Origin: Eukaryota sp. GEM-RC1
Lineage: Eukaryota
Assembly (NCBI GenBank): GCA_040285855.1
Contig: JAUFOQ010000010.1
Coordinates: forward strand, 682,001-746,000
Direction of reading: 5' to 3'
Length of the DNA: 64,000 bases
Position 1 is the stretch's first letter. The number at the start of each line of letters is the position of its first letter. The translations under genes and the position numbers were made by a program. The notes under the pieces were generated by a model. It was not told the DNA's origin. It worked only from the letters and a program-made list of their open reading frames with translations, and did no database searches. Shown piece after piece: positions 2,579-42,469 of the stretch.

Positions 2579-3270
2579 ATTTTGTTGACTTCAATATTTG
2601 GTTGACCATAAAGTATTCCAATGTATGTACTGTACTCTTGCTTTTTTCCTGAACAGAACATAGTAAGTCGTCACGTCTTAACACATGTTTGAGGATTGTT
2701 TGATTGGTTCGTTGAAGGAGATTAATATGTTGCTGATTTTGCGTTATACATCGCCAATAAAGCACAAGACAGCCCCAGACACGACTTATGTGATAGTAGT
2801 GAGGCTGAATCACTACCACGTTTCTATCCCTGCTGGTATAAACAGCAGGGATAGAAACGGTTTTGTCAGCAACAAGAAACCAAGGGTGGATTATTTTTTC
2901 CTAAAATAAAGGATGCTGGCAAAAGTATAGTTGTGACAACAATGGAGCGGTAAAGCTTTGTTTGTAGTGTTGACAAATTATTTGACTCAATTGATTTTCA
3001 AGTCAAATCATTTTTTCTCATTTGACCCAAGTCAAATTGTTCGAATTGACTTGGAAATCGTAGACTTGAACTGTATTTTTTATTTGTACTTATATTAATA
3101 GGGAAACTGACTATATTGTGTTTTTAGTCAATGTTGTGTAAGTTGTCAGTTTAGTCAGCTAGAATTTCTTACTAAATTGGTGTTAACTAGGATAAGCAAG
3201 ATTGACGAAGTATCTTTATCAGCACAAGTCATTTCGCAAGTCAAGTCGCTTTGTTTGTGTTGAATCACTC

Positions 3271-7660: not shown

Positions 7661-7840
7661 TGTAATAAACAAAAATACAATCGATGTACATAGATGTAGG
7701 TGTAGTTGTACTACGATTTCCGTATCAGCCTTTGACAAACACCATCTGCAATCCCGCCACAACAATCACTTGGTTCATGGACACATAGACGAATTGTTGG
7801 TTCAGCACAATTTCCCCATACCTCTTCTACTTCATAGAAC

Positions 7841-13340: not shown

Positions 13341-15807
13341 ATACGAAGAATCTGATGTTGTCCTAGCACCAGAAGTGTGATTAGCATCAGTTGTAGAACA
13401 ATCTATCAATGATTGATTGTGTAGATCCCCCTGTGTTTTAAGCTGCAAATTCGTTTTCTGAATTGTTTGTCAGTTGTCACACTAATGGTATTGGTATACT
13501 TTCTTGTGAGAAAAAAAAGTAAATGATTGATTAATAAAATTATCAACAACCATCGCCCTTAGTCAAGCGTCATGAATGAAGGGATTACTAAAGACACACA
13601 GATATCTCGTATCGCCTACCCATTTTAACGAAAACAGGGTGATCTGATAGAAATTGAAGATATCTGCGGACTTTGTACATTTGCCCTTAAATTTGAAGAA
13701 GCATCCCAAATGCACATTATTTTGGCTACATTGTACTTCTGATTTGTGCTTGTAGTTCTACACAGTAAAAGAAGGAATTTCTTGTACTCAGAACTCCAAG
13801 TTTGTCATGTGTAAAAAGAATACCATTAATATTTACTGATACTTTGAAGATATAACACCTTCATCATTTTGGAAAATTCTGGATCCTTCACTCGTAAAGT
13901 ATCATATACTTCAGAATAGATAGCATCCATAACATCGACAAGCTGATACATCTCACTGGCCTGTTTTCGACATCTAATCGAGAACAGAATAGCAACTGGT
14001 GGAGATGATTCAAGACTCTGAATGAATTGAGTTGCCAGTTGTTTCTTGTTTCGGTAATCAGATTTTGCATCAATACCAACAATCAAACGTGATTCAGTTC
14101 TGTCATCAATCAAAATAAGATCAGGACCAGCTGCTCCTGCTGAATTCTTCCAGCTCTTACCTCTACATGATTCTAAATCCTCCCAGGTACATACAAGTTT
14201 AGGGTCAATTGGAGGTTGAATCACAAGAGACTTGGGGGTTTTCTTTTTGTTCAAATTTTTGGGTACCATAGAAAGACTCTCCAAACGAACAGTAGAACGA
14301 AGCTTGATCACGTAATCTCGAGAACTCCAAGCACAAACAGCAGGCATGCGTGACGTTTGACTTGGTCCAAATAGATAAATTATTGAATGGAAAATTGAAA
14401 CATGAATTACTTTTGAAAGTAGTGTAATTCTCAACATAAAATCAATTAAGTCTTCAAAAGATTCACCCATTATCTTGGCAAATTGATCTTTAGCTCGTCG
14501 AACTTCCTCATCTTGAAATTTACCTTGGTTGTTTGATTCATTAATTTTTGCAGTTGAAACAAATCAACAATGGTAAATCTACCAAGACTGCAAGTTTAAT
14601 TAATAAAGCCTGAGGAAGGAAACACTTTGGATTCCATTTGAGACTAAATGTAGACAAAAGACAATGAAAACGGGTACACTGAAACGAATCTGAATTGTTT
14701 CGATTGTGCTTTTGAGGAGGAAGTGGACTTATCATTATGTATGCAGAGGTTTCAAATGTGTCCATGCTATGTTCCCCAAAGTTTGTAAGAAGTATATCAC
14801 AGTGAAATTCACTTTAAGAAAGTTGAGATGATAGAGCTAGAGGAAATGCTTCAACATCGAATGCTTGTATCAGTGGATCTGAAAGGGAAATACCAGAGTC
14901 ATTTTGCTCAGGACAAACACGCCTATTTTTGGTTTTAATAAAATTTTCAATTGTTCTGGATACGGTACTTGGGTTTCCAGAACACATAATAAGACATTTT
15001 AAAGCATCGTTAAGATTAAATCCAGGTGAATTGGTAAGATTAGCTTCCTTAATAAATTGGTGTAGATGAACCAAGTCAGAAATGGCTTCAAGTCGATATG
15101 TCACAACCTTGAACTGTGAACTTTCTAAGCTCTGATGTATATATTGGCGATAAAGTCCCGCAACGTATGGTACCCCTATTGAGTGTGTAATCAGATCTCT
15201 ATAAAAGGAAACCATTCTAATAGTCCTGAATCACTGGAGTTTAGTGTATTCTTACAAGGGATTTCGTTGGAAAAAAACAAGAATGGTAATTCAATCTCCA
15301 AGTTATTATGGTTATTCACTGGACCAATTAATTTGTACATCTTTTTGTCAAAATGATAGATGTCAATTTTTAATTGATTCGAGCTAGGCGTGTAAATTGA
15401 GATTGATGGAATTTCTATTTGTTTTCAATTTGTTAGAAATTTTCTGAAAGAAATGAAATGTAAGCATGATTCAAATAAAGCGTCGATATCAGTTCAATAT
15501 TTCAAAGACTGTGAGAGATCTGATTTACGTCTCAACAAAAGTTTAAAACAATTATAGCACCATTGTGTTTTGTATGAGAACCAGATCACTCTTGTAAATA
15601 ATGACCTGCTGATCGATAAAGTCAACTGATCAACAATTTCGACAACTTCGACAAACGAAACGGAAATTGAAAGCAGTTGCTGGTGGATTGGTAACAGGAC
15701 GGTAATCAAATTCCTTAGGGATGGCCCTGATGTAAATAATAAATGATTGGATTGCAAGAAGAATCGTCGATTAGATATACTCAATTTCAAGATGTACGTG
15801 TTGGCAC

Positions 15808-18207: not shown

Positions 18208-18450
18208 ATGCCAAACTCTTCTCTGACATTGAACCAGAAACGCGGATTGTGCAACTATGCCTCTTCACAAGTACCCTCTCCATCTTTATCTCAACTAGTT
18301 TTGTGCCTTTCAAACACTTTCAACGTAACTGTTGACAACACAACTGTCAGCAAGATTCTTAAAGACACTAACAGGTACCAGCAGCTCCGCATCATGGCTG
18401 TGAATAGAAATCTCAAAAGAATACGAACTGTTGAGTTTCCAGAGAAGCAG
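18208..18450 (+). pseudogene. CENP-B/Tigger-type N-terminal HTH transposase fragment
   Basis: Translates as LTLNQKRGLC...SLSQL...FNVTVDNTTVSKILK...RIRTVEFPE. Confidence 0.6.
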
Positions 18451-19681
18451 GATTTCCCTGTTGCGCTGGTTGGATGTTCAAGAACTTCCGAATTAGTATC
18501 AACAAGAAAAGAACAACGAAAAGACTGAGGACAAGAAACAGCTCTAATACAGTGCAAAAAATCAGAAGAATTTAAATGTTCCACATTCCAAGTCAAAACA
18601 CTGCACATCTCATCAAGAACAAGAATAAGTGGAGTTTTAGTGGAAAGCTTAGAGAAATCTGGAGTTTGAAGTGTTTTGATCAAATCAAGGAATTTGTCAA
18701 CAATTAAGAGTTGTCCTTTAGGACTGGTGGAAAAATGGAACCACAACTTTGGGTCCAAATGTGTTTGTGTACGTTCATAATCCTGAAAGACTTCCACATG
18801 GGCAAACAAAAGCTGTAAAAAAATTGCCTGAATGGCTTCAACATTATTCATGAAACCAGTATTCATGAAATAAGGCCTATTAAAACCGTGTTCTACAACC
18901 AATTTGAAGGGGTGATTCCAGGAGTTCCTGCACCAAAGTTGAGGTAGAATCCAGGATTATTTTCAAGAGCGTCAGCAAGAGCAGCAGTTTTACCAGTACC
19001 TGATCCAGATACAACAAAGGCAATCCTACACCCCACAGCAGCAGCTTCGTCTTGAAGAAAACTTCGAACAGTCTGAGACATACCACTTTCACAGTCAATC
19101 TCAAAAAAAATTCTGTTTGGATTCTGCCTGTAAAAAAAGGGAGAAGGACCAGTCACGGAGCGTAAAAAAGGTGGCTTTATGGTATAATTTTCGTTCTCAA
19201 GTATGGTACATAAACCAGAAGGTGGAAGGTACTGGGAGTGATATAAGACATGGTGGTTGAAATAGGTAAAGTAATTTGGTTCTCCAGGTAAAGTGACAGC
19301 AATGGTAACATCACCGTAAAAACGAGTATGTAGTTCAAACTGGATGAGACGGGGTTTCAAATGAAAAGAGACGGTTTCACCAAGGCGGATATAAGATTGA
19401 AATTTGTCTGTGAGAAAAAATACAACCGTGTTTATGACGAGACAATGTGTCGGTGATTCGAAATATTTCGAAACATATAGTATAATGTTACATCATTTCC
19501 AGATACCAATTAATACGTGGTGTTGTTGAAAACAATAGCAAATGAACTTTTCGATATGACGAGTGTTAATTACCGGGTAAAACTGAAAATCAATCTGTGT
19601 ATGATCGACTGCTAAACTGCTTTGATATTTGTTTATGTGTGACTTATAATGGGGTGATCTTTCTATCAGAGGAAAATATCT

Positions 19682-20265
19682 TTAGAAATGAATTCTATTC
19701 TTGTGTAGTGATTTTAATGATTGTTGTGTTTGACTGTTAATTGAGTTGTTACGTAGATAAATCGTAGACAGTGAAGAATTCACCTTCAAAGCTTCAGCAA
19801 TTGCAATAGCGCCTTCATTACCAATTGAGTTGCTATGTAGATAGATCGTAGAAACAGACGAATTCACCTTCAAAGCTTCAGCAATTGCAATAGCGCCTTC
19901 AGGACCAATTGAGTTGTTATGTAGATAGATCGTAGAAACAGACGAATTTACCTTCAAAGCTTCAGCAATTGCAATAGCGCCTTCATTATCAATTGAGTTG
20001 TTACGTAGATCGATCGTAGAAACAGACGAATTCACCTTCAAAGCTTCAGCAATTGCAATAGCGCCTTCAGGACCAATTGAGTTGTTATGTAGATAGATCG
20101 TAGAAACAGACGAATTCACCTTCAAAGCTTCAGCAATTGCAATAGCACCTTCATTACCAATTGAGTTGTTATCTAGACCAATCGTAGAAACAAACTAATT
20201 CACCTTTAAAGCTTCAGCAATTGCAATAGCGCCTTCAGGACCAGTTGAGTTGTAATGTAGATAGA
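19682..20265 (-). pseudogene. LRR cassette 1 (6 modules + cap; internal TAG at 20195-20197)
   Basis: No in-frame ATG; same cap and stop as the gene. Confidence 0.85.
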
Positions 20266-20847
20266 AATCGGAAATGCTAGCCGGTTCATAGAACCCATAT
20301 CCAGTAAAGAGAAGCTTAGATAATGTTAGATAATAAACTCAATTTAAGATAAACAAAAACCTACTTTGTATGTTAGGACAATTGTGTGACAAGATTTCCA
20401 ATTAAATCACAGATCACTAAAACAGAATCTAACGAACAACCTAATTTTGACCAATATTTAATAAATTACCATGACTAAAATATCTTTGGAGTAGATACAA
20501 AAGGATACTGTACATCTTATAAATCACTAAGAATAATCAAAGCATCACTCAACTCATGGACAATTAAGCTGTTTTTTGAGAAAAAATACAACCGTGTTTA
20601 TGACGCGACAATGTGTCGGTGATTCGAAATATTTCGAAACATATAGTATAATGTTACATCATTTCCAGATACCAATTAATACGTGGTGTTGTTGAAAACA
20701 ATAGCAAATGAACTTTTCGATATGACGAGTGTTAATTACCGGGTAAAACTGAAAATCAATCTGTGTATGATCGACTGTTAAACTGCTTTGATATTTGTTT
20801 ATGTGTGACTTATAATGGGGTGATCTTTCTATCAGAGGAAAATATCT

Positions 20848-21011
20848 TTAGAAATGAATTCTATTCTTGTGTAGTGATTTTAATGATTGTTGTGTTTGAC
20901 TGTTAATTGAGTTGTTACGTAGATAAATCGTAGACAGTGAAGAATTCACCTTCAAAGCTTCAGCAATTGCAATAGCGCCTTCAGGACCAGTTGAGTTGTA
21001 ATGTAGATAGA
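20848..21011 (-). pseudogene. LRR cassette 2 (1 module + cap)
   Basis: Not in the ORF track; has the same junction, cap and spacer as the other cassettes. Confidence 0.85.
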
Positions 21012-21592
21012 AATCGGAAATGCTAGCCGGTTCATAGAACCCATATCCAGTAAAGAGAAGCTTAGATAATGTTAGATAATAAACTCAATTTAAGATAAAC
21101 AAAAACCTACTTTGTATGTTAGGACAATTGTGTGACAAGATTTCCAATTAAATCACAGATCACTAAAACAGAATCAAACGAACAACCTAATTTTGACCAA
21201 TATTTAATAAATTACCATGACTAAAATATCTTTGGAGTAGATACAAAAGGATACTGTACATCTTATAAATCACTAAGAATAATCAAAGCATCACTCAACA
21301 TAACGACAATTAAGCTGTTTTTTGAGAAGAAATACAACCGTGTTAATAACGAGACATTGTGTCGGTGATTCGAATCATTTCAAAACAAAAGAATAATGTT
21401 ACTTCATTTCCCGATACCAATTAATACGTGGTGTTGTTGAAAACAATAGCAAATGAACTTTTCGATATGACGAGTCTTAATTACAGGGTAAAACTGAAAA
21501 TCAATCTGTGTATGATCGACTGCTAAACTGCTTTGATATTTGTTCATGTGTGACTTATAATGGGGTGATCTTTATATCAGAGGAAAATATCT

Positions 21593-21756
21593 TTAGAAAC
21601 GAATTCTATTCTTGTGCAGTGATTTTAACGACTGTTGTGTTTGACTGTTAATTGAGTTGTTACCTAGATAGATCGTAGACAGTGAAGAATTCACCTTCAA
21701 AGCTTCAGCAATTGCAATAGCGCCTTCAGAACCAATTGAGTTGTTATGTAGATAGA
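21593..21756 (-). pseudogene. LRR cassette 3 (1 module + cap; most divergent flank)
   Basis: First module is YLHNNSIGSEG rather than YLHYNSTGPEG. Confidence 0.85.
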
Positions 21757-22335
21757 AATCAGAAATTCTAGCCGGTTTAGAGAACACATATCTAGTAAAG
21801 AGAAGCTTAGATAACGTTAGATAATACACTCAATTTAAGATAAGCAAAGACCTACTTTGTATGTTAAGAGTGCGCGACAAGATTTCCAATTAAATAACAG
21901 ATCACTAAAACAGAATCTAACGAACAATCTAATTTTGACCAATATTCAATAAATTACCATGACTAAAATATCTATGGAACACATACAAAAGGATACTGTA
22001 CATCTTATATATCACTGAGAATAATCAAAGCATCACTCAACTCAAGGACAATTAAGCTGTTTTTTGAGAAAAAATACAACCGTGTTAACAGCGAGACAAT
22101 GTGTCGGTGATTCGAAATATTTCGAAACATATAGTATAATGTTACATCATTTCCAGATACCAATTAATACGTGGTGTTGTTGAAAACAATAGCAAATGAA
22201 CTTTTCGATATGACGAGTCTTAATTACTGGGTAAAACTGAAAATCAATCTGTGTATGATCGACTGCTAAACTGCTTTGATATTTGTTCATGTGTGACTTA
22301 TAATGGGGTGATCTTTATATCAGAGGAAAATATCT

Positions 22336-23507
22336 TTAGAAACGAATTCTATTCTTATGCAGTGATTTTAATGACTGTTGTGTTTGACTGTTAATTGAGT
22401 TATTAGATAGATAAATCGTAGAAACAAACGAATTCACCTTCAAAGCTTCAGCAATTGCAATAGCGCCTTCAGGACCAATTGAGTTGTTACCTAGACCAAT
22501 CGTAGAAACAAACGAATTCACCTTCAAAGCTTCAGCAATTGCAATAGCGCCTTCAGGACCAGTTGAGTTGTAAAGTAGATAAATCGTAGAAACAAACGAA
22601 TTCACCTTCAAAGCTTCAGCAATTGCAATAGCGCCTTCAGAACCAATAGAGTTGTTATTTAGATATATCGTAAAAACAGACGAATTCACCTTCAAAGCTT
22701 CAGCAATTGCAATAGCGCCTTCAGGACCAATTGAGTTGTTCCTTAGATAAATCGTAGAAACTGAAGAATTCACCTTCAAAGCTTCAGCAATTGCAATAGC
22801 GCCTTCATTACCAATTGAGTTGCTATGTAGATAAATCGTAGAAACTGAAGAATTCACCTTCAAAGCTTCAGCAATTGCAATAGCGCCTTCAGGACCAATT
22901 AAGTTGTTATCTAGATAAATCGTAGAAACTGAAGAATTCACCTTCAAAGCTTCAACAATTGCAATAGCGCCTTCATTACCAATTGAGTTGCTATGTAGAT
23001 AAATCGTAGAAACTGAAGAATTCACCTTCAAAGCTTCAGCAATTGCAATAGCGCCTTCAGGACCAATTAAGTTGTTATGTAGATCGATCTGAGAAACTGA
23101 AGAATTCACCTTTAAAGCTTCAGCAATTGCAATAGCACCTTCAGGACCAATTGAGTTGTTATATAGATAAATCGTAGAAACTGAAGAATTCACCTTCAAA
23201 GCTTCAGCAATTGCAATAGCGCCTTCAGGACCACTTGAGTTGTCACCTAGATAAATCGTAGAAACTGAAGAATTCACCTTCAAAGCTTCAGCAATTGCAA
23301 TAGCGCCTTCAGGACCAATTGAGTTGCTATGTAGATCGATCTGAGAAACTGAAGAATTCACCTTTAAAGCTTCAGCAATTGCAATAGCACCTTCAGGACC
23401 AATTGAGTTGTTATATAGATAAATCGTAGAAACTAAAGAATTCACCTTCAAAGCTTCAGCAATTGCAATAGCGCCTTCAGGACCAGTTGAGTTGTAATGT
23501 AGATAGA
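22336..23507 (-). pseudogene. LRR cassette 4 (13 modules + cap, open frame)
   Basis: Open reading frame with no ATG. Confidence 0.85.
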
Positions 23508-24089
23508 AATCGGAAATGCTAGCCGGTTCATAGAACCCATATCCAGTAAAGAGAAGCTTAGATAATGTTAGATAATAAACTCAATTTAAGATAAACAAAA
23601 ACCTACTTTGTATGTTAGGACAATTGTGTGACAAGATTTCCAATTAAATCACAGATCACTAAAACAGAATCTAACGAACAACCTAATTTTGACCAATATT
23701 TAATAAATTACCATGACTAAAATATCTTTGGAGTAGATACAAAAGGATACTGTACATCTTATAAATCACTAAGAATAATCAAAGCATCACTCAACTCATG
23801 GACAATTAAGCTGTTTTTTGAGAAAAAATACAACCGTGTTAACAACGAGACAATGTGTCGGTGATTCGAAATATTTCGAAACATGTAGTATAATGTTACA
23901 TCATTTCCAGATACCATTTAATACGTGGTGTTGTTGAAAACAATAGCAAATGAACTTTTCGATATGACGAGTCTTAATTACCGGGTAAAACTGAAAATCA
24001 ATCTGTGTATGATCGACTGCTAAACTGCTTTGATATTTGTTTATGTGTGACTTATAATGGGGTGATCTTTATATCAGAGGAAAATATCT

Positions 24090-24337
24090 TTAGAAATGAA
24101 TTCTATTCTTGTGTAGTGATTTTAACGACTGTTGTGTTTGACTGTTAATTGAGTTGCTATGTAGATAAATCGTAGAAACAGACGAATTCACCTTCAAAGC
24201 TTCAGCAATTGCAATAGTGCCTTCAGGACCAATTGAGTTGTTACCTAGACCAATCGTAGAAACAAACGAATTCACCTTCAAAGCTTCAGCAATTGCAATA
24301 GCGCCTTCAGGACCAGTTGAGTTGTAATGTAGATAGA
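24090..24337 (-). pseudogene. LRR cassette 5 (2 modules + cap)
   Basis: Open reading frame with no ATG. Confidence 0.85.
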
Positions 24338-24920
24338 AATCGGAAATTCTAGCCGGTTCATAGAACCCATATCCCGTAAAGAGAAGCTTAGATAATGTTA
24401 GATAATAAACTCAATTTAAGATAAACAAAAACCTACTTTGTATGTTAAGACAATTGTGTGACAAGATTTCCAATTAAATTACAGATCACTAAAACAGAAT
24501 CTAACGAATAACCTAATTTTGACCAATATTCAATAAATTACCATGACTAAAATATCTTTGGAATAGATACAAAAGGATACTGATACATCTTATAAATCAC
24601 TAAGAATAATCAAAGCATCACTCAACATAACGACAATTAAGCTGTTTTTTGAGAAAAAATACAACCGTGTTAATAACGAGACACTGTGTCGGTGATTCGA
24701 ATCATTTCAAAAGAAAAAGAATAATGTTACATCATTTCCAGATACCAATTAATACGTGGTGTTGTTGAAAACAATAGCAAATGAACTTTTCGATATGACG
24801 AGTCATAATTACCGGGTAAAACTGAAAATCACCCTGTGTATGTACAACTGCCAAACTGCTTTGATATTTGTTCATGTGTGACTTTTGATGGGGTGATCTT
24901 TATATCAGAGGAAAATATCT

Positions 24921-25504
24921 TTAGAAACGAATTCTATTCTTGTACAGTGATTTTAATGATTGTTTTGTTGGACTTTTAATTGAGTTGAAACATAGATCGA
25001 TCGTAGAAACTGAAGAATTCACCTTCAAGGCTTCAGCAATTGCAATAGCTTCTTCATTACCAATTGAGTTGTCACCTAGATAAATCGAAGAAACAGACGA
25101 ATTCACCTTCAAAGCTTCAGCAATTGCAATAGCGCCTTCATTACCAATTGAGTTGTTACCTAGATTGATCGTAGAAACAGACGAATTCACCTTCAAAGCT
25201 TCAGCAATTGCAATAGCGCCTTCATTACCAATTGAGTTGTTATATAGATAAATCGTAGAAACAGAAGAATTCACCTTCAAAGCTTCAGCAATTGCAATAG
25301 CGCCTTCAGAACCAATTGAGTTGCTAAATAGATCGATCGTAGAAACAGAAGAATTCACCTTCAAAGCTTAAGCAATTGCAATAGCACCTTCAGGACCAAT
25401 TGAGTTGCTACGTAGATCGATCTGAGAAACTGAAGAATTCACCTTCAAAGCTTCAGCAATTGCAATAGCACCTTCAGGACCAGTTGAGTTGTAATGTAGA
25501 TAGA
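24921..25504 (-). pseudogene. LRR cassette 6 (6 modules + variant cap; TAA at 25368-25370)
   Basis: Variant cap LCFNSIKSPTKQ; 3' part identical to cassette 7. Confidence 0.85.
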
Positions 25505-26087
25505 AATCGGAAATTCTAGCCGGTTCATAGAACCCATATCCCGTAAAGAGAAGCTTAGATAATGTTAGATAATAAACTCAATTTAAGATAAACAAAAACC
25601 TACTTTGTATGTTAAGACAATTGTGTGACAAGATTTCCAATTAAATTACAGATCACTAAAACAGAATCTAACGAATAACCTAATTTTGACCAATATTCAA
25701 TAAATTACCATGACTAAAATATCTTTGGAATAGATACAAAAGGATACTGATACATCTTATAAATCACTAAGAATAATCAAAGCATCACTCAACATAACGA
25801 CAATTAAGCTGTTTTTTGAGAAAAAATACAACCGTGTTAATAACGAGACACTGTGTCGGTGATTCGAATCATTTCAAAAGAAAAAGAATAATGTTACATC
25901 ATTTCCAGATACCAATTAATACGTGGTGTTGTTGAAAACAATAGCAAATGAACTTTTCGATATGACGAGTCATAATTACCGGGTAAAACTGAAAATCACC
26001 CTGTGTATGTACAACTGCCAAACTGCTTTGATATTTGTTCATGTGTGACTTTTGATGGGGTGATCTTTATATCAGAGGAAAATATCT

Positions 26088-26923
26088 TTAGAAACGAATT
26101 CTATTCTTGTACAGTGATTTTAATGATTGTTTTGTTGGACTTTTAATTGAGTTGAAACATAGATCGATCGTAGAAACTGAAGAATTCACCTTCAAGGCTT
26201 CAGCAATTGCAATAGCTTCTTCATTACCAATTGAGTTGTCACCTAGATAAATCGAAGAAACAGACGAATTCACCTTCAAAGCTTCAGCAATTGCAATAGC
26301 GCCTTCATTACCAATTGAGTTGTTACCTAGATTGATCGTAGAAACAGACGAATTCACCTTCAAAGCTTCAGCAATTGCAATAGCGCCTTCATTACCAATT
26401 GAGTTGTTATATAGATAAATCGTAGAAACAGAAGAATTCACCTTCAAAGCTTCAGCAATTGCAATAGCGCCTTCAGAACCAATTGAGTTGCTAAATAGAT
26501 CGATCGTAGAAACAGAAGAATTCACCTTCAAAGCTTAAGCAATTGCAATAGCACCTTCAGGACCAATTGAGTTGCTACGTAGATCGATCTGAGAAACTGA
26601 AGAATTCACCTTCAAAGCTTCAGCAATTGCAATAGCACCTTCAGGACCAATTGAGTTGTTATATAGATAAATCGTAGAAACTGAAGAATTCACCTTCAAA
26701 GCTTCAGCAATTGCAATAGCGCCTTCAGGACCAATTGAGTTGCTACGTAGATCGATCTGAGAAACTGAAGAATTCACCTTTAAAGCTTCAGCAATTGCAA
26801 TAGTGCCTTCAGGACCAATTGAGTTGTTACCTAGACCAATCGTAGAAACAAACGAATTCACCTTCAAAGCTTCAGCAATTGCAATAGCGCCTTCAGGACC
26901 AGTTGAGTTGTAATGTAGATAGA
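26088..26923 (-). pseudogene. LRR cassette 7 (9 modules + variant cap; TAA at 26535-26537)
   Basis: Shares the stop and 3' modules with cassette 6. Confidence 0.85.
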
Positions 26924-27505
26924 AATCGGAAATTCTAGCCGGTTCATAGAATCCATATCCCGTAAAGAGAAGCTTAGATAATGTTAGATAATAAACTCAA
27001 TTTAAGATAAACAAAAACCTACTTTGTATGTTAAGACAATTGTGTGACAAGATTTCCAATTAAATTACAGATCACTAAAACAGAATCTAACGAATAACCT
27101 AATTTTGACCAATATTCAATAAATTACCATGACTAAAATATCTATGGAACACATACAAAAGGATACTGTACATCTTATAAATCACTAAGAATAATCAAAG
27201 CATCACTCAACTCATGGACAATTAAGCTGTTTTTTGAGAAAAAATACAACCGTGTTAACAGCGAGACAATGTGTCGGTGATTCGAAATATTTCGAAACAT
27301 ATAGTATAATGTTACATCATTTCCAGATACCAATTAATACGTGGTGTTGTTGAAAACAATAGCAAATGAACTTTTCGATATGACGAGTCTTAATTATCGG
27401 GTAAAACTGAAAATCAATCTGTGTATGTTCGACTGCTAAACTGCTTTGATATTTGTTCATGTGTGACTTATAATGGGGTGATCTTTATATCAGAGGAAAA
27501 TATCT

Positions 27506-27921
27506 TTAGAAACGAATTCTATTCTTATGCAGTGATTTTAATGACTGTTGTGTTTGACTGTTAATTGAGTTGCTACGTAGATCGATCTGAGAAACTGAAG
27601 AATTCACCTTTAAAGCTTCAGCAATTGCCATAGTGCCTTCAGGACCAATTGAGTTGCTATGTAGATAAATCGTAGAAACAGACGAATTTACCTTCAAAGC
27701 TTCGACAATTGCAATAGCGCCTTCATTATCAATTGAGTTGTTACATAGATCGATCGTAGAAACAGACGAATTTACCTTCAAAGCTTCAGCAATTGCAATA
27801 GCGCCTTCAGGACCAATTGAGTTGTTATGTAGATAGATCGTAGAAACAAACGAATTCACCTTCAAAGCTTCAGCAATTGCAATAGCGCCTTCAGGACCAG
27901 TTGAGTTGTAATGTAGATAGA
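27506..27921 (-). pseudogene. LRR cassette 8 (4 modules + cap)
   Basis: Open reading frame; no N-terminal start (one internal Met only). Confidence 0.85.
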
Positions 27922-28503
27922 AATCGGAAATTCTAGCCGGTTCATAGAAACCATATCCCGTAAAGAGAAGCTTAGATAATGTTAGATAATAAACTCAATT
28001 TAAGATAAACAAAAACCTACTTTGTATGTTAAGACAATTGTGTGACAAGATTTCCAATTAAATTACAGATCACTAAAACAGAATCTAACGAATAACCTAA
28101 TTTTGACCAATATTCAATAAATTACCATGACTAAAATATCTATGGAACACATACAAAAGGATACTGTACATCTTATAAATCACTAAGAATAATCAAAGCA
28201 TCACTCAACTCATGGACAATTAAGCTGTTTTTTGAGAAAAAATACAACCGTGTTAACAGCGAGACAATGTGTCGGTGATTCGAAATATTTCGAAACATAT
28301 AGTATAATGTTACATCATTTCCAGATACCAATTAATACGTGGTGTTGTTGAAAACAATAGCAAATGAACTTTTCGATATGACGAGTCTTAATTATCGGGT
28401 AAAACTGAAAATCAATCTGTGTATGTTCGACTGCTAAACTGCTTTGATATTTGTTCATGTGTGACTTATAATGGGGTGATCTTTATATCAGAGGAAAATA
28501 TCT

Positions 28504-29339
28504 TTAGAAACGAATTCTATTCTTATGCAGTGATTTTAACGACTGTTGTGTTTGACTGTTAATTGAGTTGTTACGTAGATCGATCTGAGAAACTGAAGAA
28601 TTCACCTTCAAAGCTTCAGCAATTGCAATAGCACCTTCAGGACCAATTGAGTTGTAATGTAGATAGATCGTAGAAACAAACGAATTCACCTTCAAAGCTT
28701 CAGCAATTGCAATAGCGCCTTCAGGACCAGTTGAGTTGTAATGTAGATAGATCGTAGAAACAAACGAATTCACCTTCAAAGCTTCAGCAATTGCAATAGC
28801 GCCTTCAGGACCAATTGAGTTGTTACATAGATCGATTCTAGAAAGTGAAGAATTCACCTTCAAAGCTTCAGCAATTGCAATAGCGCCTTCAGGACCAATT
28901 GAGTTGTTATATAGATCGATTCTAGAAAGTGAAGAATTCACCTTCAAAGCTTCAGCAATTGCAATAGCGCCTTCAGGACCAGTTGAGTTGTAATGTAGAT
29001 AGATCGTAGAAACAAACGAATTCACCTTCAAAGCTTCAGCAATTGCAATAGCGCCTTCAGGACCAATTGAGTTGTTACATAGATAGATCGTAGAAAGTGA
29101 AGAATTCACCTTCAAAGCTTCAGCAATTGCAATAGCGCCTTCATTACCAATTGAGTTCTTACGTAGATCGATCTGAGAAACTGAAGAATTCACCTTCAAA
29201 GCTTCAGCAATTGCAATAGCGCCTTCAGGACCAATTGAGTTGTTATGTAGATAGATCGTAGAAACAAACGAATTCACCTTCAAAGCTTCAGCAATTGCAA
29301 TAGCGCCTTCAGGACCAGTTGAGTTGTAATGTAGATAGA
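28504..29339 (-). pseudogene. LRR cassette 9 (9 modules + cap, open frame)
   Basis: Largely collinear with the LRR region of the gene, with module substitutions. Confidence 0.85.
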
Positions 29340-29921
29340 AATCGGAAATTCTAGCCGGTTCATAGAAACCATATCCCGTAAAGAGAAGCTTAGATAATGT
29401 TAGATAATAAACTCAATTTAAGATAAACAAAAACCTACTTTGTATGTTAAGACAATTGTGTGACAAGATTTCCAATTAAATTACAGATCACTAAAACAGA
29501 ATCTAACGAATAACCTAATTTTGACCAATATTCAATAAATTACCATGACTAAAATATCTATGGAACACATACAAAAGGATACTGTACATCTTATAAATCA
29601 CTAAGAATAATCAAAGCATCACTCAACTCATGGACAATTAAGCTGTTTTTTGAGAAAAAATACAACCGTGTTAACAGCGAGACAATGTGTCGGTGATTCG
29701 AAATATTTCGAAACATATAGTATAATGTTACATCATTTCCAGATACCAATTAATACGTGGTGTTGTTGAAAACAATAGCAAATGAACTTTTCGATATGAC
29801 GAGTCTTAATTATCGGGTAAAACTGAAAATCAATCTGTGTATGTTCGACTGCTAAACTGCTTTGATATTTGTTCATGTGTGACTTATAATGGGGTGATCT
29901 TTATATCAGAGGAAAATATCT

Positions 29922-31779
29922 TTAGAAACGAATTCTATTCTTATGCAGTGATTTTAACGACTGTTGTGTTTGACTGTTAATTGAGTTGTTACGTAGATCG
30001 ATCTGAGAAACTGAAGAATTCACCTTCAAAGCTTCAGCAATTGCAATAGCACCTTCAGGACCAATTGAGTTGTAATGTAGATAGATCGTAGAAACAAACG
30101 AATTCACCTTCAAAGCTTCAGCAATTGCAATAGCGCCTTCAGGACCAGTTGAGTTGTAATGTAGATAGATCGTAGAAACAAACGAATTCACCTTCAAAGC
30201 TTCAGCAATTGCAATAGCGCCTTCAGGACCAATTGAGTTGTCACATAGATCGATTCTAGAAAGTGAAGAATTCACCTTCAAAGCTTCAGCAATTGCAATA
30301 GCGCCTTCAGGACCAATTGAGTTGTTATATAGATCGATTCTAGAAAGTGAAGAATTCACCTTCAAAGCTTCAGCAATTGCAATAGCGCCTTCAGGACCAA
30401 TTGAGTTGCTATGTAGATAAATCGTAGAAACAGACGAATTTACCTTCAAAGCTTCAGCAATTGCAATAGCGCCTTCATTACCAATTGAGTTGTTACATAG
30501 ATAGATCGTAGAAAGTGAAGAATTCACCTTCAAAGCTTCAGCAATTGCAATAGCGCCTTCATTACCAATTGAGTTCTTACGTAGATCGATCTGAGAAACA
30601 GAAGAATTCACCTTCAAAGCTTCAGCAATTGCAATAGCGCCTTCAGAACCAATTGAGTTGCTAAATAGATCGATCGTAGAAACCTCATTTCTCACCATCT
30701 CATCATAAAAACTCTTCAACTTAGAGCTAAGCTTGCTCCAATCAATAACAAGTTTCTTCTCTTCAACTTGTTGTACAGGGCAGACACTTTCAATACACTT
30801 GATTGGTAAAGGAGGGTCTTCTAAAAGCCTATCAGAAGCAACGCTAGACTCCGAATCAACAGAAAGAGAGGTCAAACGACGAGAAGCATCGGAGTGGATG
30901 GAGAACAGTTCTTCATTTAAATAGGAGATGATATCAGATTGGTTGTTGAGAAGGGTTGAAGTGGTGGTAGTGAATTTTTCGCTGATCTTTGGCTTAAACA
31001 CGACAGGTTTCCCAGATTGTAAGTTATTCATAATGGTAGCAGAATCTAACATAGTTTCTTGCAAAATGACAGTCAGACTTTCTTTGAGTTGGACAAAACC
31101 ATTTGTTGCTTGCTGGATGGCAGCTTCAGCTGACTGTGATATTTTTCAATGGCTAACGACAACTCTTGATTAATGGAGTTAATATTCTTTTCAATGGAGG
31201 TTCGACCTTCATTGAAGGGAAGCAACTTCTTTTGTGTTGGTCATGGTCACCAAGGAAAGCACACGTGGAACAAAGGGCAACGGAGCAGAAGGTGCAGAAC
31301 AACTCTAACGACTTCATACTGTGGCTGGGGCACTTGGGAACAAGGTAGGCATGCTTCTTATTTAGGGGGACAGCAACATGAGATCGTAGCACCTTAGGGC
31401 GATGAGCAGGGTTAAAACAGTCGTCACAGAAATCAGTGTCACATTCTGCGCAATAACAAGTGGCAGCAGCTTCATCACACTCAAAACAAATAGTCTCACC
31501 CTGACCAGCAACGAAGGCTTCAACAGCTTCTTTCAACTTGTAGTTAGGACACAGCCTTGACTTGTCCACTTCAGCTCGACAGATCGGACATCCGTTATGA
31601 GAAACAAGCCACTCCTGCAAGTCCGACATACAAAAGGTGTGGCCACACCAAGTAGTTACCGGATTCTTGAGAATTTCGTGACAAATATCACAGAGATAGT
31701 GAGACATTTGAGGAAGAAAATAGTCCGCAGTCGAAGAGTTCATTCTGGAAAACTCCGACATCATTTTGTCGCACGACAT
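29922..31779 (-). CDS. TRIM-like E3 ligase (RING, B-box, B-box, coiled coil) fused to 8 RI-like LRRs + cap; ~619 aa after restoring two 1-bp homopolymer deletions
   Basis: RING CDIC..CGHTFC..CPIC; B-boxes CFECD..CAEC..CDDC..H..H and CPSH..CTFC..CSTC..H..H. Adding one base to each T runs at 31230-31233 and 31142-31146 joins ORFs 31153-31779 and 29922-31064 through a helical segment (HKKKLLPFNEGRTSIEKNINSINQELSLAIEKISQSAEAAIQQ). Confidence 0.85.
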
Positions 31780-35044: not shown

Positions 35045-36211
35045 CTGTCAGGCACCAATTAGTGACCCACCTCCTAATAGTGCCCCCCTCCTAATAGTGA
35101 CCCACTTTAGGGGTGGGGCTATAATTTAGTGCCCCAGTGTTGATCAAGATCACACAAATGGGTGATAAAAACAGTCTTATGTCAATAAAAAGAATATACG
35201 ATTAGATTCAGATTTAATAGTGGTATTTGGAACTGTGATGAAACTGCCATATTTTGTGAACCAAATGAATCAAGAACAATTGATTTTATTGACCAAAAGA
35301 TTGTTGTTGTTAAGTCTGCAGGTCTCGCAAAGGTACGTTTGACCGGAATCGTTATGGCTAACGCTCTAGGAGTGAAAAAACTCCTGCCATTATAGCACAA
35401 AGATCAGGAAACAGAACCAATAGAGAAGAAGGCTGCTTTATCTTGAAAAGAGAATCATCTTTGATGAATGGAGATTTATTCATCAAATATCTGCAGTTAA
35501 TGTTTCCATTGACCAGTAAGGCTGCTGCCAACAGAATGCTATTGGTATTTGATTCAGCTCCTGCCCATCGAAGTAAGAAGGTCAAGGCTTATCTCAAGGA
35601 AAGGGGGTTCAACTATGTTTTGACTCTCGGTGGTTTAACTGGATTATTACAGCCAGCAGACGTCAGTTGGTTCAAACCTATGAAAGCAACTATCAGGAAT
35701 TGTATTGAAGAATGGTTGGAGACTGCACCTGTAACGACCTCCAATCGAGTTAGAGCACCTTTGGCTAACGATATGGCAAAATGGATGAAAGAGTCGTTGG
35801 ACAAGTTAAAGAGTGAAGTAATATCAAAATCTTTTCAAGTGTCTTTTCTAGGGCCTTCGCAGACCTTATTGATTTCTCGCCATCCATCAATCCGTCCTCA
35901 CTTAGATATCAATAGTTTCGATGCATTATTACCATATTCATCAAGTGATGAGGAGGAAGTAATCGATTTGGATTCATCGTCTGATGATGACATCGATGAC
36001 CTTCTTCAACTCAACAATTCATTGAATTTGGGGATGGATAATGATGTTGTTGCAGTCTTTGACTAGAGTTATATTGAAATATAAAGTTGTTTTATGGGTC
36101 ATTTATGAACAAAGACAAAAGAATCCTAATAGTGACCCCCTCCTAATAGTGACCCAGTTTGGGGGTGGGGCTATAATTTAGTGACCCGGGGTACTATTTG
36201 GCGCCTGACAG
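35045..36211 (+). mobile_element. Internally deleted pogo/Tigger DNA transposon with DDE_1 transposase remnant
   Basis: 19-bp TIRs (CTGTCAGGCACCAATTAGT, 2 mismatches), TA TSD, subterminal CCTAATAGTGACCC repeats. Motifs WNCDET, LVFDSAPAH and LQPADVSWFKPMK; no HTH; frameshift near 35385. Confidence 0.9.
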
Positions 36212-37184
36212 TATGTATACTAAAGTAGTTATTTACGCTTTCACAATAGCTCAGCTATCATCTATTGTTATTTTGGAGAAAAGATCGCAGAGTCATCAAG
36301 GCATATACACTGTCATAGCTTAATCGATTACGTAATTTTGTGACAGTACATCCAGCAAAAAAAAATACTTGGTTCTAAGAAGAAGTTGTGGCTTGAATTG
36401 CAAGAAAGTGCCTTGCAATTTTGGAAAGTCCACTCAAAAGCATTTCTAGATGAGCACCGCCACTTCAATGAATCTTTGTCTGGTCCGATTATTTTTCCGC
36501 AAGATATTTAGTAATTTTGGTAGATTTTAATTGTTAATTTTAGGGAGACATCTTGCCTTTCGACAAAACCAATTTTCGAGAAGTAGTTCCACTCGATATA
36601 CTTCGTTGGAGAAATAGGGCGAGTTTCAGGTTGGGGTTCAGGTTGGGGTCAGCTTCAGGTTGAGATTGAGGTTCCTCTCCCAAAAGATATTGTATATCAG
36701 AAATGTAAGAAAAATGTGTATTATATGATTCCAGGTAAACAAAAAACAATTGATAAAAATAAATAGAACCATATGGTTCGTGGTTCTGGTTTGGTTCAGA
36801 CGTCTATGGTACTGGTTTGGTGTGATTTAGACGTTTGTGGTTCTGGGTTGGTTTGGTTCAAATTTTGAGAACGAAAACCAAACCAAACCAATCCATTACA
36901 ATCCCAAATTTCCACAGTGTTAATTTGGATAGAAAACGGATGAAACTCAAATGGATGGTGTCGACGAGAATTCAAATTTACAATTAGAACAATCATGAAC
37001 TAAATGTGATCCTTTCAGCAGTTTCCAGAGTTAAGATTATTTCATTTGATCCAATTCCTTTCGTTAATTACTGTAATGTGTTAGCCACAGGTGTTAGTGA
37101 AGTGTTACTAGTACGTATAATTTGATTTATAAACACCCTTTACCTTCCCCTTTGCACCTTTAGGTATTAATAATTATTATCCTC

Positions 37185-39413
37185 ATGGTAAAAAAGAGGA
37201 ATCTTACTACAGCTGCTCCTAAGAAAGGAGTTACTAACCGCAGACAGCCAAGTAGGTCTGTCAAAAAGACCAGAGTATCGAAGAGCTCTGCCACCCCGAT
37301 CGAAGTGCCTACTGAATCCTCAGTAGATGAAGAGGACTTTGTGTCCGAACTCTCCTCACCCGAGAGTCTCTCCTCACACGAGAGCCCATCTTCAAACGTT
37401 GATGGAAGTTCCTTGGCTTCTTCGGAAGCCGGCGAAACGACTGGTATAAGACCCTTGGGCTCTTCGGAGTCTGGCGGCAACCCTGGTCCTTTGGAGTCAT
37501 CCATTGGACCAGAACAGGAAGATCCTCTTGGAATCAAGAAGGTTCTGGAGAAATACGGAGTCCCCGTTATGTTTTCAGATACCACTAGTACTCCGGGAGA
37601 CAATGTTGTGGGTAATGCTACTTCGTCTGCAGTTCAGCCAACATCATTGCCATCTCATCATGTTTCTGATTCTTCCTTGTTAGTTAGTAGTTTATTAAAT
37701 AAAGATAACGTTGATCCTTCAGTTCCTCTGTCTAGAGAGGTTGAAGAGAGCCTTAGGCAACTTCAAACAGTCCTAGCTCAGCATAAGACCAGGGCAGAAG
37801 AAGCAAAACGACAGCTTCTGGAGCAACAGCAAAAAACAGCTAATCTTTCCATGACTGAGAGAGCTCTAGCTGTAGAACAACAAACCGGTTATGTGTCTAG
37901 ACCTCATAGAGATGCAGTTCCCAACGATCTCATCCCGTTTGTAAGTCCGTACGATCAGAGTGTCTCCATCTCTGACTACGACTTGTGGCATCTTGCCAAA
38001 TTTGCTCCCTGGCATCCCACTTTGCGTCATAGAAAGCCTGCTGGAAGACATTACTTGCTGAAAAATGTTCCTCCTGGCACGTCTCCTCAAGCCATAAAAC
38101 AGTTTTTAGGTGACTTATATGATAGTAGAGCTGGTGATACTTATAGGTTTCCTTCCACCTACTCTTGGGATCCTAGACATGGTATCATCATTGAACCTTT
38201 AGTCCAGATATTCAGTGCTGATGGTCAGTCAGTTTCATATGAATACTCCGCCTGGTACTTACATTCGTTGAACAATAAACGCAAGTTATATCACAACGTT
38301 TCTGTAAGTACCGAATGGCTCCCTACTGGTCATCAGTATAGTCATTTACCTGCGGCGACAAGAGTTCTGGATAGTTTGTCAACTTCACCACAAGATGTTG
38401 ACTCTGTCCCTGTTCAACCTTTTTCTGGAATTGGTGGTTCCCAATTGGTACTCCCATTAGCTTCTCAAGCTATGTGTGAAAAAGCTACATTTGCTCCGAA
38501 CCTTTCTGATTTAAATGGCTTAGATAGTGTTCAAAGATTCTTCCCTGGTGAAGTTTACAGACCTGAGCAGGTCGATAGATTTACACACGGCCTTAGAGAT
38601 GGTATCTCTACCCAAAATTTTGAAGCTCAATTTGGTGGTGAAGAAAGATTCATCAGCTTAGAAGAACATGAAAGTGTTTATCGTAAGCCAGAAGGCTTTG
38701 CTAAAGGTTGTGATGAATCTATGTCCATGGCTCTCTCCTCAGAACAGCTTGCTCAAAATAGAAAAAATCATGTTGCTCACATGACCAGAAGTAGAAAAAC
38801 TCCTAAACGATCAAATTCGATCGAGATAAGTGATCTGACTTCTCAATCAAAATCACCTTTGGCAGAACTTTCTGATGTCACTGACTCTATGTCTGAAGAT
38901 AGCTCATCTGAAGACGAAGAACCGAACGTTTTGGCTGATACTCCCATCATTTTGTCTGGTGTCCCTCAAAGAAAAGATCGAACAAAGAAAAAGTCCATTT
39001 CAAAGAAATCAAGACCCAGCTGCCTCAAATCCGAGAGTCGCGAGGACATAATTAAGTTCATCCATGAATTTAGTTATTGGGCAATTCATGTCCGGAAACA
39101 ATCAAATCGTAAAGACTTTGACACTCGTTTAGGTATCGCTCCAATCAATAAATTTGATCTCGTAAGACTCACTTTGTTAGAGATTGATCCTACTGGTGTT
39201 TCCGAATTCATTGATCGTCAATTGCTGAGTGACTGGAAGCTTCTAAATGTTCCAGGTCCAGATTCAAACATAACTGAAAAAGACCTTTGGTTCAGATTGG
39301 TTCTCCTGAGCCAATACACTTCTACTACTCAAGCTATGGGTGATCTGAAGAATCTTAGACTTAGTCAATCTAATGATCCTAATCTAATGATGGTATTGAT
39401 TGTCCACCCATGA
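37185..39413 (+). CDS. ORF1/Gag-like protein (Ser-rich, no zinc knuckle seen)
   Basis: 742-aa ORF starting 15 bp after the 5' LTR. Confidence 0.75.
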   Translation: MVKKRNLTTAAPKKGVTNRRQPSRSVKKTRVSKSSATPIEVPTESSVDEEDFVSELSSPESLSSHESPSSNVDGSSLASSEAGETTGIRPLGSSESGGNPGPLESSIGPEQEDPLGIKKVLEKYGVPVMFSDTTSTPGDNVVGNATSSAVQPTSLPSHHVSDSSLLVSSLLNKDNVDPSVPLSREVEESLRQLQTVLAQHKTRAEEAKRQLLEQQQKTANLSMTERALAVEQQTGYVSRPHRDAVPNDLIPFVSPYDQSVSISDYDLWHLAKFAPWHPTLRHRKPAGRHYLLKNVPPGTSPQAIKQFLGDLYDSRAGDTYRFPSTYSWDPRHGIIIEPLVQIFSADGQSVSYEYSAWYLHSLNNKRKLYHNVSVSTEWLPTGHQYSHLPAATRVLDSLSTSPQDVDSVPVQPFSGIGGSQLVLPLASQAMCEKATFAPNLSDLNGLDSVQRFFPGEVYRPEQVDRFTHGLRDGISTQNFEAQFGGEERFISLEEHESVYRKPEGFAKGCDESMSMALSSEQLAQNRKNHVAHMTRSRKTPKRSNSIEISDLTSQSKSPLAELSDVTDSMSEDSSSEDEEPNVLADTPIILSGVPQRKDRTKKKSISKKSRPSCLKSESREDIIKFIHEFSYWAIHVRKQSNRKDFDTRLGIAPINKFDLVRLTLLEIDPTGVSEFIDRQLLSDWKLLNVPGPDSNITEKDLWFRLVLLSQYTSTTQAMGDLKNLRLSQSNDPNLMMVLIVHP

Positions 39414-42400: not shown

Positions 42401-42469
42401 AAGTCATCGTCTGTAGTTAAGACACCTGTAGCTAAGAGGACAAGGAGCTCAAGAAGAGAGAAGAGGTAA
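39410..42469 (+). CDS. Pol: reverse transcriptase, RNase H, integrase, degenerate chromodomain
   Basis: Motifs LDLPKAFWQ, YIDD, TDASD, TDHRNL, HHCC (H..H..CPAC), HSDNG, NGLVER and GPY; C-terminal IVVKILD..VLWFG. Confidence 0.93.
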   Translation: MTIPFYDESVTVLRPPRRLNPEKQRIAEEIFNELIRQGWAVPSTGKFSSPIVLVVYNDHRKPRLTGDFSGPDGINANTRPVKPNLPRICDVLEFLSKANFIGTLDLPKAFWQLNVAEEDVEKTSVSIPGMSISFKRACFGLKNVPAIFQNIMMEIFNVEGVFIYIDDIIVVGNTFEEFISRIYLVLERAERFRVRIGLKKCRFTTSRHPNKILGSNFCNKTRCIDDKRVSALIELPAPSTLPEVRSLLGALNYVREWIPNYSNLTASINELTRGKPKRIAWTKDHDALLDKIKTEIINHMALDLPDTDKNIIISTDASDIAVGGVIWQEENPPAPPGTPLEERRVRPVSFYSRLLNDSQQNWAAIQKELYAILLILTESSLEGFLLSRHLTIFTDHRNLAYLISAPEKNRIVKRWIPIFSEFDFEIEHVAGTNNQWADMLSRVIDRRPVETIKSLLISNHTIKNDIILSHEVLIYDEADYVEMLPCNTNILAIKSLQDLSTYNKLPLFDSWLSTIRAEQHKAINEGDQMFQDSTLCTMSNVYINSKNKILIPSSLRTKVLYTLHGLVQSGHPNKKRSLEILFNSGYFWPSMKADMVKHVKQCPACQKTAPVPKKIIESTGSLWADRPFARLNVDTIGPLPKDQNGNQFLLVFVDSFTRYTILSPLEELNSREVAYRLVWDVIAIFGIPFCIHSDNGTEFANAIFEAICNLLAIEVSRSIPHFSQSNGLVERRHRDVLQSLRRLLVDFNDYNNWSTYIPTVQLQINATNSSVTGHSPYELMFGSDISPGADPSNLLAAVEKSTKNVPFINDIKMKLDRLTKKREEAEVRQSRLKPKKKSGPSQSFNVGDLVLKASKTSKLHGNYTGPYLVVSIDSKSSVSLKNLITGYVSKTSIHQCKIFQSDLPADHVLHRAIASGDSEEHIVVKILDRFNTPDGEHRTVLWFGGDTSSVPTKDIKNTKAYSEFVKLENVDLFCNSRNVAKSKPTKLKRTSSSMSIPKSSSVVKTPVAKRTRSSRREKR

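Follow-up and report, generated by a model that had tools for sequence, protein, structure and literature searches.

We analysed a tandem array of leucine-rich repeat (LRR) modules on the minus strand of a 64-kb window, the whole stretch of DNA under study, from Eukaryota sp. GEM-RC1 (contig JAUFOQ010000010.1). According to 10.1101/2023.05.03.539051, the lineage comprises free-living metamonads that feed on bacteria and come from soda lakes, and its sequencing relied on R9.4 nanopore reads corrected with Illumina data. The array, running from 30683 down to 19682, comprises 69 modules in 10 blocks, 59 of them full modules of 84 bp and 10 of them C-terminal caps, and no indel occurs among the 69. 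Block B0 forms the 3' end of a lead gene, and nine cassettes (B1 to B9) lie downstream of it, each running from a partial module through full modules to a cap and a stop, with a spacer of approximately 585 bp after it (Table 1). The lead gene starts at 31707 and encodes a RING and two B-boxes, which lead through predicted long helices and a linker into an LRR part of eight modules and a cap, with the stop at 29922.

The definition of the TRIM/RBCC family in PMC5758549 names a RING, B-boxes and a coiled coil, with a C-terminal domain that binds the substrate and varies. The lead gene has the RING and B-boxes, with a coiled coil predicted after them, and differs in its C-terminal domain, which is an LRR array. 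Pfam zf-C3HC4 families match the RING, and two stretches match as zf-B_box, with the ANCHR-like B-box slightly below its cut-off. In a model of the intact paralogue P0002, helices follow B-box 2 at residues 165–221, 224–232 and 244–282, with a predicted local distance difference test (pLDDT) score of 60–75. Paralogue P0125 matches TRIM28 over residues 39–229 (E = 2.7e-9), and the RBCC part also matches TRIM2, TRIM3 and TRIM25; the coiled-coil region is covered by the TRIM28 and TRIM3 matches. The heptad signal of the coiled coil is weak, and Foldseek with the full-length paralogue model gave LRR matches only. Neither the lead nor the intact paralogues contain a NACHT or NB-ARC domain. The lead product is predicted to be a TRIM-like ubiquitin ligase of the cytosol.

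Of the 150 relatives listed for the RBCC part, the 4 already known positives carry this LRR and none of the other 146 does. A search of the literature, with subscription papers and supplements outside its scope, found no description of a RING-B-box-LRR protein or of headless LRR cassettes arrayed in a protist. The pairing of a TRIM-like head with a fast-evolving LRR sensor was not found in the searches made. We notice that five related RBCC proteins (P0123, P0139, P0141, P0145 and P0147) carry other C-terminal domains, which Pfam does not name and which look RRM-like or SPRY-like when read by eye.

The AlphaFold2 model of the LRR part (55 sequences, pLDDT 96) places a strand at module positions 3–5 in every repeat and a helix at positions 12–25. 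Foldseek matched it to NOD2 (template modelling score, TM, 0.89), to ribonuclease inhibitor (RI; TM 0.88) and to NLRP3. The strand and helix of each repeat, the LxxLxLxxNxL core and the Pfam LRR_6 match identify the modules as RI-like LRRs of 28 residues. Following published LRR geometry (PMC3138743), and with I4 and L6 placed in the core, positions 3 and 5 are predicted to point outward from the concave sheet, and 7 and 8 come next in the turn. In the model the helix lies on the convex side, and its second residue is position 13.

The most variable sites of the LxxLxLxxNxL core are its x positions 3, 5, 7 and 8. By amino-acid entropy, position 7 ranks highest (2.6 bits), followed by 8 (2.0), 5 (1.3), 13 (1.2) and 3 (1.2), and then by 28, 11 and 1. 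Over all 69 modules, position 7 shows 11 codons for 10 amino acids and position 8 shows 7 codons for 6 amino acids, while position 5 is occupied by TAT (42), GAT (21), GGT (4) and AAT (2). Position 13, counted in 59 modules, holds CCT (39), AAT (15) and TCT (5), and position 3, which an earlier note on this DNA did not name, varies too, among ACG, CAG, AGA and TCG. The earlier note had counted 59 modules of 84 bp, which agrees with our count of full modules, and its codon lists are correct save that they miss one AGG at position 7 and one AAT at position 8. Its assignment of the variable sites to the beta strand and adjacent loop agrees with the model for positions 5, 7 and 8 and fails for position 13. 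The variation is accordingly not confined to the concave face, as the note had claimed, and positions 1 (V/L), 11 (I/T) and 28 (S/F) are dimorphic as well.

Among the 38 distinct modules of 50 internal ones, the proportion of non-synonymous differences (pN) is 0.34 at positions 3/5/7/8 against 0.03 in the framework, with a module-wide synonymous proportion (pS) of 0.11. In the codons flanking the variable strand pS rises to 0.25, and over the set of modules approximately 13–17 synonymous steps have taken place in the unit, which contradicts the claim of little synonymous change. Likewise, the 42-bp block described as nearly invariant holds common silent variants (GGC/GGT 48/9 and TCT/TCG 33/25).

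Because recombination is heavy, we set a tree-based codon model aside and used pairwise, minimum-step and site-independent coalescent tests, assuming a Kingman genealogy and a kappa of 2. The minimum-step omega, which is biased toward synonymous paths, is about 4.6 at position 7 (p = 0.0008) and about 2.5 for positions 3/5/7/8 pooled (p = 0.004), and it falls to 0.34 in the framework (p = 0.003). In the site simulation each codon had its own genealogy, the mutation rate was taken from 13 fourfold sites, and 51 of the 69 modules were used after nine junction modules and nine recent copies had been dropped. The 10 amino acids of position 7 were reached in 0 of 5000 neutral simulations, also at a doubled mutation rate. 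Position 8 gave P = 0.007, or 0.04 at the doubled rate, and positions 3, 5, 11, 13 and 28 gave P values of 0.10–0.60. The framework is under purifying selection, and diversifying selection is firm for position 7, fair for the set 3/5/7/8 and weak for position 8. The proposal of diversifying selection in the earlier note can be kept to this extent, and not for positions 3, 5 and 13 taken singly.

At positions 5, 7 and 8 the third base is almost fixed, as had been noted. Counted together, these codons have 7 extra alleles at the first base, 6 at the second and 3 at the third, and a plain selection model expects 2.6–4.3 third-base alleles, so that the observed 3 do not form a separate phenomenon (P 0.30–0.75). 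The frequency of third-base alleles is low at a borderline level (P 0.02–0.14), and third-base heterozygosity is 0.04 here vs 0.22–0.56 in control arrays, which are more diverged. Near-fixed third bases require no special mutator.

How general is this codon pattern? A metagenome protein scan yielded distant LRRs only, of which the best 80 of 231 were used as controls, and a viral-contig protein scan yielded 1 locus at 41% identity. The exact 33-base module pattern occurs in no stretch of the metagenome contigs. At positions 3/5/7/8, pN exceeds pS in all 39 distinct arrays, which come from 38 of 81 distant loci that are not mutually independent, and seven close paralogues (50 modules) vary at the same positions. 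The codon pattern is real but of smaller extent than the note had claimed, and it is ordinary, being general in this LRR type; hypervariable x positions of LRRs are published and common, and the signal at single sites contributes little. Of the 81 control loci, 7 contain long direct repeats out of register, one or two each, vs 179 rows of such repeats for the window. By coordinates, none of the 81 loci has a window-like cassette array, a weak negative since short contigs would collapse such arrays. On one metagenome contig (L023, 482–1417 and 2982–4439, plus strand), two neighbouring full LRR genes share the same N-terminus and vary strongly at the x positions.

Several lines of evidence point to traffic of modules along the array. 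The modules are mosaics, as 24 of 55 site pairs are incompatible by the four-gamete criterion, and the mean nucleotide identity among the 38 distinct modules is 0.90, which reaches the threshold for concerted repeats described in PMC4986451. Exact cassette copies exist for five of the eight lead modules, where 0.03 would be expected, and one of them, lead module 1, is an internal module of the distant B3 and B4 (p = 0.02). The head module common to most cassettes is lead module 7. Over 904 bp, namely the last 904 bp of B1 including its spacer, the lead and B1 are identical, and B3 and B4 share 1147 identical bp. B1 consists of a cassette head followed by lead-like modules, the pattern expected of unequal crossover. 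Between the gene and the cassettes the exchange of units is seen at the DNA level, and between paralogues it is suggested at the protein level only: P0001 and P0122 match in 113 of 118 linker residues, yet their LRRs are unequal in number and carry different x residues. The better supported direction appears to be that from the gene into a cassette.

In paralogue P0128, the linker and LRR part is triplicated in frame, with breakpoints at module positions 4–6, like the junction of the window cassettes (protein only). Duplication at the 3' end therefore recurs in the family.

All nine cassettes share one junction, where the 3' flank and codon 4–5 of a module meet in a few bases common to both. 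The 21 open codons upstream of each cassette contain no in-frame ATG, and three of the nine (B3, B4 and B9) contain internal stops, which derive from two events. The spacers diverge by 0–7.5% and recombine (four-gamete incompatibility in 88 of 496 site pairs); no Rfam family reached its gathering score in them, and promoter-like sites are not in excess. Nine start-less copies beside a gene would form the layout of unexpressed cassettes, their silence being judged from sequence. Residues found only in cassettes are nevertheless enriched approximately 4-fold at the four x positions (9 vs 11 elsewhere, p = 0.002). Seven of these nine x residues are present among the 50 modules of the seven paralogues, vs two of the 11 framework ones, a comparison at the protein level. 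Cassette-only changes of the framework are near neutral (12 non-silent, 5 silent), a difference from the lead that is not significant (p = 0.19). The enrichment supports the condition set by the earlier note, that modules in untranslated cassettes must have passed through an expressed gene. The cassettes look untranslated but stocked from translated genes, and the source gene need not be the neighbouring lead, because close paralogues vary at the same sites.

Table 1. Features of the lead gene and the cassette array, in window coordinates.
Feature	Position	Strand	Basis or remark
Lead gene, 5' part: RING, B-box 1, B-box 2	31153..31707	-	Pfam zf-C3HC4, ANCHR-like B-box, zf-B_box; frame as assembled stops early after one-base gap
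Lead RING	~31692-31579	-	Pfam
Lead B-box 1	~31488-31375	-	Pfam
Lead B-box 2	~31338-31228	-	Pfam
Frame break 1, one base short in A-rich run	31227..31233	-	tblastn frame change
Frame break 2, one base short in A run	31142..31146	-	tblastn frame change
Predicted coiled-coil helices, low-confidence linker, N-cap helix of LRR	30684..31226	-	P0002 model; P0125 TRIM28 match
Lead LRR array, block B0: 8 modules, cap, stop; RI/NOD2-type 28-residue LRR	29922..30683	-	model, Foldseek
First spacer, ~585 bp, non-coding; recurs after every block	29340..29921	-	sequence comparison
Headless cassette B1, 10 modules with cap	28504..29339	-	
Headless cassette B2, 5 modules	27506..27921	-	
Headless cassette B3, 10 modules, internal TAA	26088..26923	-	
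Headless cassette B4, 7 modules, internal TAA	24921..25504	-	
Headless cassette B5, 3 modules	24090..24337	-	
Headless cassette B6, 14 modules, open frame without start	22336..23507	-	
Headless cassette B7, 2 modules	21593..21756	-	
Headless cassette B8, 2 modules	20848..21011	-	
Headless cassette B9, 7 modules, internal TAG	19682..20265	-	
Last spacer: truncated (272 of 585 bases present), fused to unrelated sequence	19411..19681	-	

Taken together, we consider it probable, with moderate confidence, that the locus is a RING-B-box-B-box-LRR gene with nine tandem copies of its LRR end behind it, all lacking a start, in which the variable codons reflect diversifying selection on the predicted binding face in translated family members, and unequal crossover and conversion move the modules among gene, cassettes and paralogues. 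A duplication over short homology may have created the single junction common to the nine cassettes. Neighbouring units are recent copies of one another, and unequal crossover between the 84-bp modules would account for these and for the mosaic modules. Position 7, weakly position 8, and the pooled set rise above the synonymous rate over a purified framework, and the selection would act on the translated members. A crossover between lead and cassette would copy lead modules into the first cassette, and B1 looks like such a product; the reciprocal product would be the gene with its LRR end replaced, in frame, by one that brings its own cap and stop. In this way the cassettes, themselves untranslated, would store surface variants and give them back, as a likely reservoir. 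We speculate that the LRR part binds a variable foreign ligand, such as a prey, symbiont or viral protein, and that the RING ubiquitinates this ligand. If cassette modules do return to the gene, the locus offers a compact and testable model of a cassette-based receptor repertoire born from one 3' duplication, in a bacterivorous protist without adaptive immunity.

A number of points weigh against this reading. The shared modules fit one-way copying out of the gene, and B1, the clearest trace, appears to point from gene to cassette. The exchange is deduced from a single haplotype, and the paralogue comparisons from protein only. Sharing of x residues with the paralogues is partly expected from the many states there (11 at position 7). 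Position 8 would fail a correction for 28 sites, and positions 3, 5 and 13 are singly not above neutrality (P = 0.10, 0.10 and 0.31). Side-chain exposure is read from strand alternation and the published geometry rather than computed, and ligand binding and ligase activity are predicted roles. Finally, the lead as assembled carries two one-base gaps in A-rich runs.

The paralogues bear on these gaps. The frame is continuous in P0001, P0002, P0122 and P0128, the last of which is 94.5% identical to the 5' part of the lead. Break 1 recurs at the same place in three of five cluster paralogues (P0126, P0127 and P0129) and is absent from P0125 and P0128. In the shifted tail after break 1, all six distinct differences (at five sites) are silent in the long frame, vs 26% by chance; this test is indirect, being derived from proteins under the assumption of single-base changes, and it covers the first break only. 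The long frame appears preserved by selection across break 1, which favours a systematic sequencing error there, and systematic errors in short homopolymers have been reported for R9 data (PMC12222747). Break 1 is therefore likely a sequencing error, with a recent real break or ribosomal slippage kept as alternatives. Break 2 may be either a sequencing error or a real break.

The main rival explanation sees the cassettes as a dead-end by-product, decaying debris of an unstable repeat that receives modules from the gene or from paralogues and never returns any to effect, with codons that are snapshots of past alleles. We regard it as unlikely, though it has to be taken seriously. The absence of in-frame starts, the stops in three cassettes, the near-neutral framework changes, the apparent copying of B1 from the lead, the truncated last spacer and the transposon-rich window all accord with decay. 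Debris would, however, hardly have kept 69 modules free of indels with only two stop events while the spacers diverged by up to 7.5%, and the recurrence of lead module 7 as the usual cassette head and of lead module 1 inside B3 and B4 also speaks against it; moreover, in-register crossover would have a reciprocal product that loads the gene. At the other extreme stands a selected germline system of archive and reload, in which the silent LRR bank would swap surfaces into the TRIM-like ligase gene at a high rate. This stronger version seems rather doubtful to us; if true, it would give a single-celled, free-living eukaryote a repertoire of receptors, akin to VLR or vls, for its cell-autonomous defence.

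Three further explanations concern the nature of the repeats themselves. It is quite improbable that the array, or its combinations of variants, is partly an artefact of assembly or polishing. The spacers after B0 and B1 are identical, that of B2 differs by one base, B3 and B4 share their 1147 bases, and the two breaks in A runs point to residual errors; but most units are individual in their modules and caps and 2–7.5% apart in their spacers, the variation follows the structure of the codons and is met again in paralogues, and long reads rebuilt such repeat arrays accurately in a published test (PMC12222747). We think it very improbable that the cassettes serve as alternative last exons, spliced to the RING-B-box-coiled-coil part. 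A donor-like GTGAG lies at 30695, just ahead of the first module, and every spacer contains a CTAAC...AG stretch whose joining to it would keep the frame via 17 open codons. Against such splicing, chance alone gives two GTRAG per kb there, conservation in the putative exon is no higher than in the remaining spacer (8 of 55 vs 55 of 525 variable sites, p = 0.36), three cassettes contain stops, and three window proteins are recorded as unspliced open reading frames (ORFs). Least credible of all is a targeted mutator, by adenine mutagenesis like that of a diversity-generating retroelement (DGR) or similar, that writes variation into codon positions 1 and 2. The NNT/NNC codon sets at positions 5, 7, 8 and 13 do resemble AAT/AAC templates, and the lowish third-base heterozygosity, below that of the control arrays, would suit it, but the number of third-base alleles matches the expectation under selection. 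Since silent-site adenines in or beside the variable stretch are fixed (CTA in 69 of 69, GCA in 59 of 59, the third base of position 10 in 68 of 69), an adenine-directed mutator is excluded. The reverse transcriptases (RTs) among the 27 scanned ORFs lie solely in polyproteins of the long terminal repeat (LTR) retrotransposon type with RNase H and integrase, and a self-comparison of the window revealed no separate template repeat; a DGR is excluded on these grounds together.

The surroundings of the array are rich in mobile elements. Two LTR-retrotransposon-type elements with RT, RNase H and integrase lie on the plus strand, the first with long open frames (37164–42469) and the second fragmented (46751–52409). 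An inverted copy of the 5' part of the first is found at 1–2050 (vs 37075–39124, 99.2% identity over 2050 bp). Fragments of a DDE transposase and an ABP1-type helix-turn-helix (HTH) protein are located at 35362–36066 and 18208–18528 (both plus), and short 17-bp tandem repeats occur near the transposase and HTH fragments, at 17176, 17943, 32333 and 35060. Adjoining the break of the last spacer at 19411, ORF fragments with P-loop-like and nuclease-like motifs (18291–19492 and 13826–14563, minus) gave no convincing Pfam match; they may resemble Crinkler-type NTPase/nuclease genes. Two further RI-like LRR genes with diverged repeats are present on the plus strand (3196–4549 and 7838–9034), the first with a TGA and a frame break. 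At 58266–60047 (minus), a gene with a RING and Sel1 repeats contains five near-identical 108-bp repeats that alternate as two types set apart by few codons (NG/YV/YG and V/D differences), a recent internal duplication without LRR-like hypervariability.

The fungal HNWD/NWD genes of Podospora (het-d, het-e, het-r) have near-identical units that evolve in concert, with four positively selected codons per unit, and in HNWD and in NLRs with highly conserved WD, ANK or TPR repeats, intact repeats persist in pseudogenes and rearrangement makes new units, as described in PMC1805685, PMC2873952 and PMC4986451. The locus resembles them in its near-identical units and in the few selected codons per unit at the predicted binding face, of which position 7 is robust, 8 weak, and the pooled set significant. 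It differs in having LRRs instead of WD, ANK or TPR repeats and a RING-B-box head instead of NACHT or NB-ARC, and its putatively silent repeats are tandem headless 3' copies directly behind the gene, whereas those of HNWD sit in dispersed pseudogenes. In the ROCO LRR-GTPases of the brown alga Ectocarpus, the selected sites 15, 17, 19 and 20 lie on the concave face, and nearby non-coding LRRs were proposed as a source of diversity, as described in PMC3341825. By our count of the printed motif, these sites are positions 3, 5, 7 and 8 of LxxLxLxxNxL. As described there, each exon of the Ectocarpus genes encodes one LRR of 24 residues and spare LRRs lie in introns, in contrast to the intronless minisatellite of 28-residue RI-type modules here, whose spares lie downstream with a cap and a stop.

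The repeat unit of PRDM9 is 84 bp. PRDM9 has been described as a coding minisatellite with changes in copy number and non-synonymous diversity at few contact codons per unit (PMC3890296). It shares with the locus the coding minisatellite and the few diverse codons per unit, and differs in that its units are DNA-binding zinc fingers. We know of no silent cassette array for PRDM9. The vls system of Borrelia is a dedicated one-way conversion system for a pathogen surface antigen. Its unexpressed paralogous cassettes, diverse in amino acids, recombine into the expression site vlsE, as described in PMC3828179. The locus resembles vls in having diverse, paralogous and putatively silent cassettes beside a gene; the protein here differs in being predicted as cytosolic, and it is known from the sequence of a single haplotype. 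Assembly of the agnathan VLR is somatic and programmed and starts from an incomplete germline gene. Silent LRR cassettes flank that gene, and the concave face is variable, according to PMC3341825 and PMC2873952. In contrast to VLR, the LRR array of the gene described here is complete, and no enzyme for assembly was seen. We place the locus among concertedly evolving recognition repeats, outside the NLRs and DGRs, HNWD- and PRDM9-like in mode and vls-like in layout. The new part is its setting, and this is why the locus matters: a TRIM-like head is joined to an LRR sensor that evolves fast, and a bank of putatively silent modules lies in tandem right behind the gene.

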